A DNA stretch of 64,000 nucleotides from Escherichia coli (GCF_029227855.1 NZ_CP074356.1), one strand, 5' to 3'; positions 1,735-54,491 are shown, counted from the first letter of the stretch. Translations and numbers: made by a program. The notes: a model not told the origin generated them from the letters alone.

Positions 1735-2445
1735 CTATAAGGCTCTCTTACCAGCCGCGCCCTAACAGGCGCACACGATCTGACATTTGCATCCAACTTC
1801 GTTACTTACGGCCCGTAAACGGGCTGCCCGGATAGGGAATCGATAACTGCTCTCCCATTTTATCCTCTTCAAGCTGGTGCTTTATGTAATCCTGTATCTT
1901 CGCCGTGTTCTTACCCACCGTATCGACGTAGTACCCTCTGCACCAGAACTCCCTGTTCCTGTATTTGAATTTCAAATCACCAAACTGCTCGTAAAGCATC
2001 AGACTGCTTTTCCCTTTCAGATATCCCATAAAGCCGGATACGCTCATTTTGGGCGGGATCTCCACAAGCATATGGATATGATCTGCACAGCATTCAGCTT
2101 CCAGAATCCGTACACTTTTCCACTCACACAGCTTTCTCAAAATACTGCCTATTGCTCTACGCTTCTCTCTGTAGAACACCTGTCTTCGGTATTTTGGCGC
2201 AAAAACTATGTGATATTTACAGTTCCATCGGGTGTGCGCTAAGCTCTTTTCGTTCCCCATTGGGACCCCCTTTTGATTTCTTGTTTGACACTTGCAGTTG
2301 CCAGACCGCAAGGTGTTTTAACAAATCAAAAGGGGTTTTAATAACTGGCTTAAAGCTGAAAGCTTTCCGGAACCCCCAGCCTAGCTGGGGGTTTTCTGTG
2401 CACAAAAAAAACAGGGCTTGCGCCCTGTTTCTTTAATACAGATGT
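1735..2445 (-). mobile_element. IS200-family insertion sequence (about 0.7 kb) inserted between csgA and csgC; boundaries approximate
   Basis: Contains an IS200 TnpA ORF; its upstream leader has an A-run/palindrome/T-run (aaaaaaaacagggcttgcgccctgtttcttt, about 2405-2437) and a second stem-loop overlapping the RBS/ATG (about 2255-2290), as expected for the IS200 left end; the csgA-csgC spacing is about 770 bp versus about 60 bp recalled for K-12. Confidence 0.75.
1802..2260 (-). CDS. tnpA: IS200/IS605-family Y1 (HUH) transposase TnpA
   Basis: Starts MGNEKSLAHTRWNCKYHIVFAPKYRR, contains the HxH motif (ADHIHMLVEIPP) and C-terminal YxxxQ-type region; 152 aa. Confidence 0.9.
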   Translation of the reverse strand: MGNEKSLAHTRWNCKYHIVFAPKYRRQVFYREKRRAIGSILRKLCEWKSVRILEAECCADHIHMLVEIPPKMSVSGFMGYLKGKSSLMLYEQFGDLKFKYRNREFWCRGYYVDTVGKNTAKIQDYIKHQLEEDKMGEQLSIPYPGSPFTGRK

Positions 2446-2448
2446 GAA

Positions 2449-2904
2449 TTAGTACTGATGAGCGGTCGCGTTGTTACCAAAGCCAACCTGAGTGACGTTA
2501 ACGCTGGAGTTAGATGCAGTCTGGTCAACAGCAGCACCGTTACCGCCACCGAACTGTTTAACAGTCATAGTAGAATCTTTACCATTCCACTGATCAAGAG
2601 TAGCGCTGTTGCCGAAACCACGCTGAGTCAGATCGATTGAGCTGTCATCAGAACCTTGGCCAACATCTGCGCCGTTACCGCCGCCGTGCTGGGTAATGGT
2701 CAGATCAGAGTTACGGGCGTCAGCTTGCAGAGCAAGTGCAGAGTTACCGCCACCGTACTGGTAAATGTTCAGCTCTGAATTTGGGCCGCTATTATTACCG
2801 CCACCACCGTGGTTACCGCCGCCGCCGTACTGAGGAACAACACCTGCCAGAGCGCTACCGGAGAATACGATTGCTGCAATTGCTGCTACTTTTAAAAGTT
2901 TCAT
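2449..2904 (-). CDS. csgA: Major curlin subunit CsgA
   Basis: 151 aa, signal peptide, Gly/Asn/Gln-rich imperfect repeats (SxxxxxQxGxGNxA type). Confidence 0.95.
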   Translation of the reverse strand: MKLLKVAAIAAIVFSGSALAGVVPQYGGGGNHGGGGNNSGPNSELNIYQYGGGNSALALQADARNSDLTITQHGGGNGADVGQGSDDSSIDLTQRGFGNSATLDQWNGKDSTMTVKQFGGGNGAAVDQTASNSSVNVTQVGFGNNATAHQY

Positions 2905-3400: not shown

Positions 3401-4155
3401 GTTGTCACCCTGGACCTGGTCGTACATTTAAGAAATTAAATCATTTCAACTTGGTTGTTAACGCAACATGTATTTTGTTAACGCTGCGTTACGATGGAAA
3501 GTATGTCTGCGGAAATATTTTTAATAACTCACCCGCGCGTTGTATTTTTCTTTTTTTGTTCATACCAAAGTATTAAAACCCACGTAAATACGCTGTTATC
3601 TACGCAAAAAAAAATATTTTGTTTTCTTTTAAATCTCCGTTTTCCGCAATCAAAAATCACCAGACAGCCATTCTTCTTGCCCGTCGCTGATTGCTGCGAT
3701 ATGTCTTGCGCACAAGCCGTGACAAACCTCGTCTTTTTGCAGTAAAAAATTGTCCACGGAGGTGTGAAGAAAAAACAACAACGTTTTACATGACGAAAGG
3801 ACTACACCGAAATATTTTTTATATGCATTATTAGTAAGTTAGCACCATTTGTATGATTTTTTAAAATTGTGCAATAAAAACCAAATGTACAACTTTTCTA
3901 TCATTTCTAACTTAACAAAACCTTAAGATTAACATTTTAATATAACGAGTTACATTTAGTTACATGTTTAACACTTGATTTAAGATTTGTAATGGCTAGA
4001 TTGAAATCAGATGTAATCCATTAGTTTTATATTTTACCCATTTAGGGCTGATTTATTACTACACACAGCAGTGCAACATCTGTCAGTACTTCTGGTGCTT
4101 CTATTTTAGAGGCAGCTGTCAGGTGTGCGATCAATAAAAAAAGCGGGGTTTCATC
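3401..4155. promoter_or_regulatory. Divergent csgBAC / csgDEFG intergenic control region (about 755 bp, AT-rich)
   Basis: Long AT-rich spacer between divergent csgB and csgD; known from E. coli to hold sigma-S promoters, multiple transcription-factor sites and the long csgD 5' UTR targeted by sRNAs. Individual sites not mapped here. Confidence 0.7.
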
Positions 4156-9700: not shown

Positions 9701-9788
9701 GGTGAGGTGTCCGAGTGGCTGAAGGAGCACGCCTGGAAAGTGTGTATACGGCAACGTATCGGGGGTTCGAATCCCCCCCTCACCGCCA
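9701..9788 (+). tRNA. serX: tRNA-Ser (anticodon GGA)
   Basis: 88-nt sequence GGTGAGGTGTCCGAGTGGCTGAAGGAGCACGCCTGGAAAGTGTGTATACGGCAACGTATCGGGGGTTCGAATCCCCCCCTCACCGCCA with long variable arm and CCA end. Confidence 0.93.
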
Positions 9789-18083: not shown

Positions 18084-19007
18084 TTAACTGTATGCATGTA
18101 GCGTACGTTGGCAAAGTGCCGAACGTACGCAATCCTCTTTACCGAATCGGACGATCCCGACCATTTCATCTTCTTCGAAACGTTCCAGCGCGTCACTTAA
18201 TCCGGAGCGCACGCCGCGAGGCAAATCGCATTGCGTGATATCACCGTTGACGATAACCGTCACGTTCTCCCCGAGGCGGGTTAAAAACATTTTCATTTGC
18301 GCGGCAGTCACATTCTGCGCCTCGTCAAGAATGACGACTGCATTTTCAAAGGTACGTCCACGCATATAGGCGAACGGCGCAATTTCCACCTTCCCTATTT
18401 CCGGTCGCAGGCAGTACTGCATAAAGGAAGCCCCTAAGCGCCGGACCAGCACGTCGTAGACCGGACGAAAATAGGGAGCAAACTTTTCTGCGATATCTCC
18501 AGGTAAGAAGCCAAGATCTTCATCGGCTTGCAGAACTGGACGGGTGACGATAATCCTGTCGACATCCTTATGTATCAGGGCCTCTGCCGCTTTTGCTGCG
18601 CTGATCCAGGTTTTTCCGCACCCGGCTTCGCCCGTGGCGAATATCAGCTGCTTACTCTCAATAGCCTTCAGATAGTGCAATTGCGCTTCATTTCGCGCGA
18701 GGATGGGCGAGGTATCGCGACTGTCGCGGGCCATACCAATGGCTTCTACGCCGCTCATCTGCACAAGCGAGGTGACCGATTCTTCTTCACGCTGCTTATG
18801 GCTGCGCGAATCCCGTCTCAGCACACGTTTTGCCTCGCGACGAGCTTTGATCACTGCTTTTTGTCTTCCCATGGAGAGCACCTTGAGTTGTTTGTATTCA
18901 TCACACGCGCCGTTGGCAGCGCGATTATGCGCACGAACATCAGAGGGTTGGCTTCCTTGTAAGCCATAGTTTGCTTTTGGATAAAATGCCGAAAAACGGC
19001 TACGCAC
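18084..19007 (-). CDS. phoH: PhoH, phosphate-starvation-inducible ATPase (start codon uncertain; see findings)
   Basis: Walker A GEAGCGKT; longest in-frame ORF starts at GTG 19007 (307 aa); internal ATG gives MGRQKAVIKARR (262-aa form). Confidence 0.85.
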   Translation of the reverse strand: MRSRFSAFYPKANYGLQGSQPSDVRAHNRAANGACDEYKQLKVLSMGRQKAVIKARREAKRVLRRDSRSHKQREEESVTSLVQMSGVEAIGMARDSRDTSPILARNEAQLHYLKAIESKQLIFATGEAGCGKTWISAAKAAEALIHKDVDRIIVTRPVLQADEDLGFLPGDIAEKFAPYFRPVYDVLVRRLGASFMQYCLRPEIGKVEIAPFAYMRGRTFENAVVILDEAQNVTAAQMKMFLTRLGENVTVIVNGDITQCDLPRGVRSGLSDALERFEEDEMVGIVRFGKEDCVRSALCQRTLHAYS

Positions 19008-51836: not shown

Positions 51837-52010
51837 TCACATTATTTTGATTTTGACATCATAACTTTCAAGCCCGGTCATTTTTTCCCGTGCGGTGAAG
51901 CGAATTTCAGAGACTTCTTTCCCTGTATTCTTGTTCAGCTCGGCGATTTTTTGCGCGATAAAGTCGGCGATTTCCGTTTCGGCTTGTTTTTTTAACTCTT
52001 CAATATTCAC
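51837..52010 (-). CDS. gnsA: GnsA (57-aa suppressor protein)
   Basis: Minus-strand translation VNIEELKKQAETEIADFIAQKIAELNKNTGKEVSEIRFTAREKMTGLESYDVKIKIM; apparent GTG start preceded by GAGG; below the ORF-track length cut-off. Confidence 0.8.
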   Translation of the reverse strand: MNIEELKKQAETEIADFIAQKIAELNKNTGKEVSEIRFTAREKMTGLESYDVKIKIM

Positions 52011-52230
52011 TGTTAACCTCGTCTGGTCTTGAAAGACAGCAACACGCCAGTAAGGTGTTGGTTCCCGGTACCCTGGTCAGGTAAGAAATGTTATAAGCCA
52101 TCTCCCCGAAAGATTCAATAATCAACAGGTTATCGCTTACTATACATACAGCGTTGAAGAAAAATAAGGCAGATATAAAAAAGGCTCCACGAGGGAGCCT
52201 GATATTATTTTGTGAAATCCAGCGGCGCAT
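52000..52230 (-). CDS. ymcE: Small hydrophobic protein, probable YmcE
   Basis: ORF 52000..52263; 76-aa product from MRRWISQNNIRLPRG with hydrophobic core; position between cspG and gnsA. Confidence 0.55.
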   Translation of the reverse strand: MRRWISQNNIRLPRGAFFISALFFFNAVCIVSDNLLIIESFGEMAYNISYLTRVPGTNTLLACCCLSRPDEVNSEY

Positions 52231-52403
52231 GCTCAGTGCGTATTTGCAGCGCGACGTTATCAAAGGTGATCATCGTCGATTTACAAAAAATACACTTTGC
52301 CCCTAAAGGATTTCGCTCCGTCACATCGAATGCCGATGTGCGGTACTGTGAACCATGACAACATGGACAGCGGAAATGGAGATGTTGAGTAATAACGGCA
52401 ACC

Positions 52404-52616
52404 TTAGAGCGTAACAACGTTCGCTGCCGCGGGACCACGTTGCCCCTGCTCAATAGAAAATTCAACTTTCTGATTTTCGTTCAGCGTGCGGAATTCATTG
52501 CTCTGGATGGCGGTGAAATGGACGAAAACGTCTTTGCTGCCATCATCAGGAGTGATAAAGCCAAAACCTTTATCTGCGTTAAACCATTTTACTAAACCAG
52601 TCATTTTATTAGACAT
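52404..52616 (-). CDS. cspG: Cold-shock protein CspG
   Basis: 70 aa; [21 protein letters not shown] cold-shock domain. Confidence 0.93.
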
Positions 52617-52901
52617 ATTTTACTTCCTTCATTTTGGGCCTTTCGGCAAACAGGGCTTTAATACAGAAACTACTTAGTGTTCAGGAGAGAGACTCAAAAG
52701 AAGGGGATAATGCCTGATAATGAGAACTGCTTTATTAAACTACTTTGTATGCTGTCTGTCTTTCAAACCGACGCAGCTATTAACGCATGATAATTGAGAT
52801 TAAGCAAATTTTATTTTAGCCGTCCGGCGGTCTTAAATATCGCTGGCTTTATTTTATTAACCCCGTATAGTGCAGCGCAGTATTTTCAGTAAGGAATTTG
52901 T

Positions 52902-53114
52902 TTGTCCCGTAAAATGACAGGAATTGTCAAAACCTTTGATCGCAAAAGCGGCAAAGGATTCATTATCCCCTCCGACGGTCGTAAAGAAGTCCAGGTCCAT
53001 ATTTCCGCATTCACTCCCCGCGACGCAGAAGTGCTTATACCAGGATTACGCGTGGAATTTTGCCGCGTAAATGGCCTGCGAGGACCAACAGCGGCAAATG
53101 TTTATTTGTCTTGA
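52902..53114 (+). CDS. cspH: Cold-shock-like protein CspH
   Basis: 70 aa; [21 protein letters not shown]; divergent from cspG. Confidence 0.9.
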
Positions 53115-54412
53115 TGGAGAGCGCACGCCGGTATGCGTGCTTCATTCACGATTTGCGTAAAACCGGCCAACGAACACATGCCCTGCGCGTTTCGCTCTTC
53201 ACATCCTGCCAGGGTCAGTTTCACCTCTCCGGGCGGCGTATTTAATGACAGCGGCGTTTTATCACGCATCTGCTGTAAAGTCTGGAAGACCAGCGAAACC
53301 TGAATCCAATGGCTGTTATCGCTTAGCCGACGCCAGCGTTCAAACACCAGTTCACCACCTGGCGGTGTGTTATCCGGCTGACCTGGAAGCGTCCAGTTGA
53401 GCTCCAGTGCGCCGCCGAGATTTGCCAGATTAGTATCGTGTCCGGCGATAAACAGCACTGAAGTGGGTAATGTCACACCATACACCTGTTTTTGCGGTGG
53501 ATGGGGCATCAACGCTGTCATGATCAAATCCAACAACGGGGTGGCACGACTGCGGGCAACCTCTGGCGTGCGTTGTAGCAAATAAAACTGCGCGTTATGC
53601 AGGCTTAGCAAGGTGTTCCACTGGTGTGAATCGGTGATCCTTCCCCACCCCGGCTCCGGCATTCCCTGTGCTTGTTGCAGGAGAAATATCTCCGTCAGCA
53701 TTGATGCGAGGCTTACCGCACCGGTTAATGAGACATTGTCGGCGCTCACCTTGAGTTCCGATGGTAATGCCTGCGTTAATGAACAGCTTTCGTCCTGTTT
53801 CTCACGGTTAAGGCACAAGTTTGATTGCGGGAAATTAAGCACCCGTTCCAGTTCACGAAACGCCGTTTGCCGATGCCCGGTAAAGTCAGCAATTGACCCT
53901 CCTGCCCTGCTGAGGATCGCGCCAGTCACGTTCGCGTTATCCAGTTGGCAAACGCCAGTTTTTAGAGGATTAAATAACGGATCGGGACTGGAGGTATCTG
54001 CCTGGGTATGTACGCTTATTGCACAGTCAGGTGCCAGCCCGGCGGCGAAGGCTTCGCCTGTTTTACGGGTACGCTCGTCGACATCAGCAATAATCGCGAC
54101 CTGACCAGGCTGCGGGCAGCCCTTTTTCGTCAGCAATCCGTCGGCTACCAGACGCTGGCGTTGGTAATGTCCGAGATAGGCGATCAGCTCACCACCGCGC
54201 GGTGTCAGCCAACCCAGTTTTACCGGCCAGGTTGGCCATGCGTCTGGGGTGACATCCTGCATCAGTTGCGTGGCCTTGGTTGGTGCACGCACACCATGAC
54301 GACTGACAATCACCACACTTTCCAGCTTCAGCTCCGGCTCACTCTGAGCGAATGCAGATTGCGGGGTGAACGGAATCAGAAGAGATAAAAATGGGATCAA
54401 GATCGCTTTCAT
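53102..54412 (-). CDS. appA: Periplasmic phytase / acid phosphatase AppA
   Basis: ORF 53102..54442; start [14 protein letters not shown] (signal peptide); RHGVRAP motif. Confidence 0.93.
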
Positions 54413-54491
54413 CGATATGTTTCCGCTTTTCATATCCGACATTATTGATTGCCTGATACGACGCTAATGCGCCGCATCAGACTTACGTTCG

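Follow-up and report, generated by a model that had tools for sequence, protein, structure and literature searches.

The near-cognate codon AUU serves as start codon of the E. coli genes infC and pcnB, whose expression is low or regulated. In infC, it is located on a free-standing ribosome-binding site and constitutes an autoregulatory signal read by IF3. Another AUU start is annotated for ymcF, a gene reportedly introduced by Zhang et al. in 2018. In contrast to infC, the AUU of ymcF lies 10 nt past the stop codon of another ORF, cspG, and is seemingly tied to this ORF. The 5' UTR of cspG is a cold-activated RNA thermometer, as was shown experimentally (PMC13271884), and transcriptomes show ymcF to be regulated together with cspG (PMC10920338; PMC11728337). 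In MG1655, ymcF has a paralog, ynfQ (b4724), located downstream of cspI in the Qin prophage; its product is 65% identical to YmcF. Both proteins comprise 62 aa and contain the same cysteines. Both genes start with an ATT 10 nt past a csp stop codon (TGA in the case of ynfQ), are followed by a terminator hairpin and belong to a module with the order csp - ymcF-like gene - small ORF - gnsA/B. In contrast to ymcF, ynfQ is prophage-borne and located downstream of a lysis cassette, and the C-terminal tail of its product has diverged. It has been tabulated as 'cold shock induced' (PMC11228462), and a 2026 review presents a rubredoxin-like model of YnfQ with Fe2+ (PMC13348028). The 'YnfQ' of VanOrsdel et al. 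(2018) is a different, 37-aa ORF and was ruled out as today's ynfQ. In the open-access literature, no description of either YmcF function or the combination of cspG with an AUU start was found, and the Weaver 2019 preprint does not mention ymcF. YmcF and YnfQ are probable members of the E. coli cold-shock response, and their conserved four-Cys core provides concrete targets for mutational analysis.

We analysed a 64,000-nt stretch of E. coli DNA (the window), in which a preliminary description had pointed to an unannotated Cys-rich ORF immediately downstream of cspG on the minus strand. The best overall explanation is that this ORF is ymcF and encodes a four-Cys protein translated from a cspG-coupled AUU start as part of a cold module; we assign this combination a probability of about 80%, and its individual parts differ in strength. 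It is practically certain that the Cys-rich frame is ymcF and truly coding. The frame stays open for 65 codons, from 52403 to the TAA at 52207..52205, in agreement with the approximate length reported before. ymcF is an already known gene, which means that the ORF is real but not new. The supposition that an existing small-protein annotation might apply was correct: in MG1655, the gene is b4723 ("protein YmcF"). The term 'unannotated' has to be withdrawn, as ymcF is present in the annotation of MG1655 and of every sampled RefSeq E. coli record and has its own Pfam family, PF23641 (YmcF-like). The match to this family reaches 164.4 bits (cutoff 27; E = 6.5e-49) and aligns residues 1-62 with positions 1-62 of the 62-position profile. 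The RefSeq CDS, taken from a 100%-identical genome, K-12 and MG1655, maps exactly onto the coordinates given in Table 1. The records call its product "cold shock small protein YmcF" or simply "cold-shock protein", and in all sampled E. coli records the gene is found between cspG and ymcE. This annotated position between cspG and ymcE/gnsA also bears out the proposal of a small coding ORF within the cold-shock cluster.

Table 1. Features of the cspG-ymcF locus; positions refer to the window.
Feature	Position	Strand	Basis
ymcF CDS, 62 codons + TAA, ATT read as Met	52205..52393	-	RefSeq, Pfam PF23641, translation
ymcF initiation codon ATT (AUU)	52391..52393	-	RefSeq CDS start; ATT/ATC/ATG at same position in homologues
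TAAGG: cspG stop TAA (52406..52404) overlapping Shine-Dalgarno AAGG (52405..52402)	52402..52406	-	sequence
First predicted metal-binding knuckle C9-P10-C11-C12	52358..52369	-	conservation, 49 sequences
Second predicted knuckle C34-I-F-C37	52283..52294	-	conservation, 49 sequences
cspG, upstream cistron	52404..52616	-	ORF list, RefSeq
Rfam cspA thermoregulator (RF01766)	52350..52772	-	157.6 bits vs gathering 78
Terminator-like hairpin AGGCTCC-CTCGT-GGAGCCT, then T run	52176..52200	-	terminator scan
Annotated ymcE ORF, neighbour of ymcF; coding status doubtful	52000..52230	-	annotation
gnsA, last gene of csp-ymcF-(ymcE/ynfN)-gns module	51837..52010	-	Pfam PF08178

The gene is nearly ubiquitous in E. 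coli. At least 80% of a 901-nt query around ymcF was matched in 5393 of 5426 complete genomes, and ymcF alone (at least 80% of the gene) was found in 5403 of them. The K-12 type YmcF and the product of the window allele are encoded by the same gene, have 62 aa each and are 97% identical. From the common E. coli alleles, that of the window differs at one or two residues, for instance E54 versus D54 and R8 versus S8. Since YmcF has a match in neither PADLOC nor PHROGs, a link to defence systems is not indicated.

Translation of ymcF very probably starts at the AUU, which lies at 1051684 in MG1655, as both the annotation and the comparison of homologues indicate. As had been stated before, there is no ATG in frame ahead of the Cys motif. 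The TTG- or GTG-type start then considered must be abandoned: neither codon is present in frame between the cspG stop and the motif, and the codons from this stop to the start read AAG GTT GCC GTT ATT. For a survey of start codons, the best 80 of 192 genomic and the best 80 of 181 viral matches were used, and the start was located as the codon five positions ahead of the conserved HFRCPCCH motif. ATT, ATC or ATG occupies this position in 156 of these 160 loci. Four genomic loci read ACG or TAC there because their ATG is displaced by one to three codons. In 15 genomic loci, an upstream in-frame stop is present and neither ATG nor GTG nor TTG precedes the motif, so that only a non-canonical start is workable there.

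The choice of the start codon follows the presence of an upstream csp gene. Among loci with enough upstream sequence, the start codon was compared with the distance to the csp stop. Where a csp stop is located 9-10 nt upstream, genomic loci have 34 ATT, three ATC and no ATG, and viral loci 74 ATT, three ATC and no ATG; in total, all 114 csp-linked copies start with ATT (108) or ATC (6). Where no csp stop lies within 12 nt, 33 ATG and five ATT were counted in genomic loci; viral loci of this kind were not encountered. The spacing between stop and start is conserved: it amounts to 10 nt in 110 copies and to 9 nt in seven (Kosakonia, where the start is in frame with the stop), i.e. the start follows a few nt behind the upstream stop as in coupled gene pairs. 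The sequence T[AG]AGG, in which the stop codon overlaps the Shine-Dalgarno sequence, is conserved in all csp-linked copies. The ATG copies carry a stronger Shine-Dalgarno sequence of the AGGAG type. Their upstream 60-85 nt align to the 3' end of csp but contain in-frame stops (13 aligned loci). Such a decayed csp remnant is found in Klebsiella/Raoultella and, separately, in Enterobacter/Leclercia/Lelliottia. ATG is also the start in C. sedlakii, whose damaged csp is joined in frame to ymcF. Exceptions with ATT but no adjacent csp are three Pseudescherichia-like loci (L047, L074, L078) and one from Atlantibacter (L065), where the ATT is followed by ATG as the next codon.

AUU initiation appears to depend on cspG translation, a reading towards which we lean on the basis of these comparisons, which comprise perhaps 4-6 independent csp losses in phylogenetically non-independent sequences. 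Initiation at the AUU would be carried out mainly by ribosomes that have just completed cspG, either by termination-reinitiation or by translational coupling. YmcF would then be synthesized exclusively when cspG is translated, i.e. under cold conditions, and in an amount that is a small fraction of CspG. We give even odds to the stricter proposal that selection has established the AUU/AUC start of ymcF and ynfQ as a device which makes synthesis strictly dependent on ribosomes completing the upstream csp gene. If true, this would be a clean and conserved bacterial case of obligate termination-reinitiation at a near-cognate codon, within a phage-borne csp-ymcF-gns module.

The strongest competitor is that the AUU belongs to an ordinary weak, Shine-Dalgarno-led site which is used independently of cspG and keeps YmcF low, with the association between ATT and csp reflecting shared ancestry instead of mechanism. 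The AAGG is indeed well spaced, 8 nt ahead of the ATT, the ATT is retained without upstream csp in three or four loci, and the non-independence of the sequences is in line with ancestry as the cause. A conserved RNA structure that would occlude the site was not found either. In E. coli, the fold at the ymcF ribosome-binding site pairs GCGGCAGC with GGUUGCCG, but its energy is not below that of shuffled sequences (z = -0.7), and RNAalifold predicted 0 pairs for 25 distinct csp-linked sequences. A conserved hairpin masking the site was rejected on these grounds; within a coupling mechanism, reinitiation consequently fits better than unmasking. Against independent initiation, ATG is found in none of the 114 csp-linked copies, even though a single T-to-G exchange would produce it and synonymous sites are saturated. 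Moreover, several lineages show ATG and a stronger Shine-Dalgarno sequence precisely at the loci with a decayed csp, and the distance between stop and start is fixed. We therefore consider independent initiation possible but unlikely. No open-access paper describing the pattern of ATT in coupled and ATG in stand-alone copies was found; the annotation already uses ATT. The pattern offers a cheap, testable case for the role of near-cognate starts in translational coupling.

The second part of the reading concerns the cysteines. As had been described, a CPCC is followed 21 residues later by a CxxC, here CIFC. In 49 aligned sequences, C9, C12, Q16, G31, A32, I35, F36, C37, K38 and M41 are invariant, P10, G14, Y17, R18, S20, D23, N28, P29 and C34 are at least 90% conserved, and the spacer between the two pairs (C12 to C34) is constantly 21 residues long. 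In distant members, the first knuckle reads CPKC, CPTC, CPHC, CPRC, CPQC, CPSC or CPNC; K, T, H, R, Q, S, N or A take the place of C11, and H13 varies as well. C11 and H13 are hence dispensable, and the ligand set corresponds to the classical four cysteines, CPxC...CxxC. The two conserved pairs approximately 20 residues apart agree with a zinc-ribbon motif and substantiate the zinc-ribbon-like arrangement suggested before.

We regard a four-Cys metal site in YmcF as a likely prediction. Within the core formed by residues 5-41, C9-P-x-C12 and C34-x-x-C37 would most likely bind one metal ion jointly, with Zn as the probable ion, and form a mini-fold of the zinc-ribbon or rubredoxin type. A first AlphaFold run with 31 close homologues reached a pLDDT of 58. 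With the alignment of 49 sequences, to which 18 divergent members had been added, AlphaFold2 modelled the core (residues 11-40) with a pLDDT of 88-92 and predicted short strands, a C-terminal helix and a subsequent disordered tail. The best neighbours in a fold search of the PDB are the zinc ribbons of TFIIE-alpha and TFIIB, with weak, non-significant scores, and the Pfam family Zn_Ribbon_TF matches weakly (E = 0.076). As predicted for YmcF, the zinc ribbons of TFIIE-alpha, TFIIB and TFIIS have two CxxC-type knuckles approximately 20 residues apart on short beta-hairpins.

Alternatively, the cysteines could bind iron, in a rubredoxin-type Fe(Cys)4 or an Fe-S centre, and YmcF could be a small redox protein. 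This is suggested by the above-mentioned YnfQ model with Fe2+ in a rubredoxin topology (PMC13348028) and by the resemblance of the E. coli sequence CPCCHGSQY to the Rieske box II, CPCHGSQY. We consider it improbable: the Rieske-like C11 and H13 are variable in the YmcF family, matches to Rieske structures in the PDB are non-significant (E 0.05-1), rubredoxin is absent among the structural neighbours, and redox partner genes are not linked at the loci viewed. Membership in the Rieske [2Fe-2S] box II group was rejected, as, apart from the variable C11/H13, box I (CxHxGC) is absent and the PDB matches extend over 12-14 residues only. Reading CPCCHGSQY as a UvrA-like finger was discarded, too, since the match is non-significant and the extra Cys and His are lost in distant members. 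NCBIfam NF047912 (ECs_2282 family putative zinc-binding protein) also comprises small enterobacterial and prophage CxxC proteins; with 17.6 bits (residues 7-51) against a curated cutoff of 37, YmcF is not a member.

A longer protein might be synthesized from one of the nearest in-frame canonical starts, TTG 52417 (70 aa) or TTG 52465 (86 aa), both located within cspG. Products of 70-72 aa are indeed found in some automatic annotations of Citrobacter, Salmonella and Kosakonia. However, this extension lacks conservation at the protein level. The TTG that precedes the ATT by 24 nt occurs only where the overlapping csp codons are GTT-GTN, and in E. albertii and several Citrobacter it is lost by the synonymous Val codon GTC. 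In the 15 loci mentioned above, a stop separates any canonical start from the motif; stand-alone homologues use ATG at the ATT-equivalent codon, and the Pfam model, which is matched from its first to its last position, has 62 positions. A longer product is thus very improbable.

Even less probable is a synthesis of YmcF as C-terminal extension of CspG by programmed +1 frameshifting or stop-codon bypass. The gap of 10 nt is very short, and one natural csp-ymcF fusion exists in C. sedlakii. Nevertheless, the variable spacing (mostly 10 nt but 9 nt in Kosakonia), by which the frame relation changes, and the stand-alone ATG genes lacking csp in many species argue against a frameshift or readthrough fusion, and a slippery or structured element is not conserved (RNAalifold). 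In the fusion (C. sedlakii NBRC 105722, L015 2297..2689 (+)), one ORF of 130 aa joins csp to ymcF (...DQGPRGPHFKVTVMTPHIHFRCPCCHG...). Its csp part has an altered RNP2 (VFVPSSAI) and lacks the normal C-terminus and stop, and the ymcF start is ATG. Either csp is decaying here or the assembly contains an error.

That ymcF is coding is decided by homology and conservation and not by the window sequence itself. The window contains 350 stop-to-stop frames of at least 65 codons, compared to approximately 272 in shuffled sequences. Frames with the pattern CxxC-x10-30-CxxC are rare (six versus 0.7 in shuffles), and of the five others in the window, at least two lie within real metalloproteins. In the protein database, 137 homologues were found, which bear the name 'cold shock small protein YmcF' across Enterobacteriaceae; with few exceptions, they come from this family and its phages. 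A profile search over 1.84 billion representatives yielded only 42 matching clusters, which shows that the family is narrow. Two occurrences look like contamination or mislabelled assemblies and not like true ones: a locus titled Chryseobacterium sp. 18061 (L067) carries an enterobacterial csp-ymcF whose upstream region is near-identical to that of Citrobacter sp. 18056 (L068), and a 663-nt contig of Aeromonas hydrophila (P0031) encodes a protein 98% identical to E. coli YmcF. All 62 codons are intact in six genomes that represent several Escherichia species, among them E. albertii and E. whittamii. In codons 2-45, dN/dS relative to the window allele is 0-0.06 within Escherichia and 0.03-0.12 in other genera where dS can be estimated; otherwise, synonymous sites are saturated. 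The checks proposed in the preliminary description thus turned out in favour of its ORF: frame and cysteines are kept across Enterobacteriaceae, synonymous substitutions predominate in the core (dN/dS at most approximately 0.1), and close Escherichia relatives are free of frame-disrupting indels. A chance ORF in an untranslated cspG 3' UTR, with which the abundance of open frames of this length and the missing canonical start would agree, is effectively refuted by the conservation across genera at low dN/dS and saturated synonymous sites, the ten invariant columns in 49 sequences, the curated Pfam family and RefSeq annotation and the persistence of independent ATG copies.

In the transcript proposed here, cspG is followed by ymcF as second cistron; the cold-activated thermometer in the cspG 5' UTR would form its beginning, and the hairpin and T run behind ymcF its end. 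The RF01766 match spans the cspG 5' UTR and CDS and extends into the first ymcF codons. The terminator-like hairpin begins 4 nt past the ymcF stop, its stem is retained in the local fold, and together with the T run it presumably forms the 3' end of the transcript. In cold acclimation, YmcF would be present as small zinc-ribbon protein in a fixed low proportion to CspG. What it does there is a matter of guessing: our best guess is that it assists the Csp cold-adaptation module as a small protein which binds nucleic acids or proteins, and an action by binding RNA, the ribosome or a partner in cold adaptation is a tentative proposal with decidedly less than even odds. The stand-alone copies in Enterobacter and Klebsiella have differing neighbour genes, which give no functional hint, and an Rfam search of eight stand-alone loci found neither a cspA-like nor another upstream element.

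The module is shared with phages. The lambdoid phages Tritos, HannyBb, mEp460 and 2H10 carry cspI - ymcF-like gene - ynfN - gnsB after their lysis genes, and in 63 of 71 viral loci, a gnsA/B homologue is located at most 1.5 kb downstream. Since lambdoid phages possess the same module, the chromosomal cspG-ymcF-ymcE-gnsA block is regarded as a copy of this phage-borne cold module. In five of nine phage records (among HannyBb, H72-H75, H77 and H79), the ymcF-like ORF is not annotated. In HannyBb (L163), where this ORF occupies 2501..2677, the annotation instead has a hypothetical CDS on the other strand (2545..2745). The ATT start, which is probably ignored by gene callers, can explain why the phage ORF is missed, mis-called or absent from PHROGs.

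YnfR, a protein of 21 aa described by VanOrsdel et al., is strongly cold-induced when SPA-tagged (PMC6001520). Its ORF (MG1655 b4749; L165 1689..1754 (-)) is the terminator hairpin behind ynfQ read as protein, with the codons ATG AAG GCT CCT TCG GGA GCT TTT TTG... The detection of YnfR implies that in the cold, ribosomes as well as transcripts get as far as this terminator or beyond it. Passing the terminator behind ynfQ or ymcF could bear on read-through into gnsA/gnsB.

At the cspG locus, the equivalent of YnfR is the N-terminal part of ymcE. This ORF starts within the last 26 nt of ymcF and crosses the terminator hairpin (52200..52182). Of seven Escherichia relatives, five either have AGG or ATA in place of its ATG or carry stops or frameshifts that disrupt its frame; ymcF and gnsA are intact in them. 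Beyond Escherichia, ymcE is essentially absent. Judged from these comparisons, it is doubtful that ymcE is a conserved protein-coding gene, despite its Pfam label 'YmcE_antitoxin'.

Further observations concern other parts of the window. The genes cspH (52902..53114 (+)) and appA (53102..54442 (-)) are convergent, and their 3' ends overlap by 13 nt. In K-12, gfc/etp/etk genes and an IS1 adjoin cspH instead of appA; the extreme end of appA may thus mark a junction left by a deletion or rearrangement. Rfam matches at gathering level are Ysr251 at 18089..18282 (+) with 192.8 bits, STnc490 at 2270..2393 (-), ES056 at 4009..4100 (+) and naRNA4/CssrE at 41589..41667 (+). Two tRNAs are located at 9701..9785 and 63317..63401.
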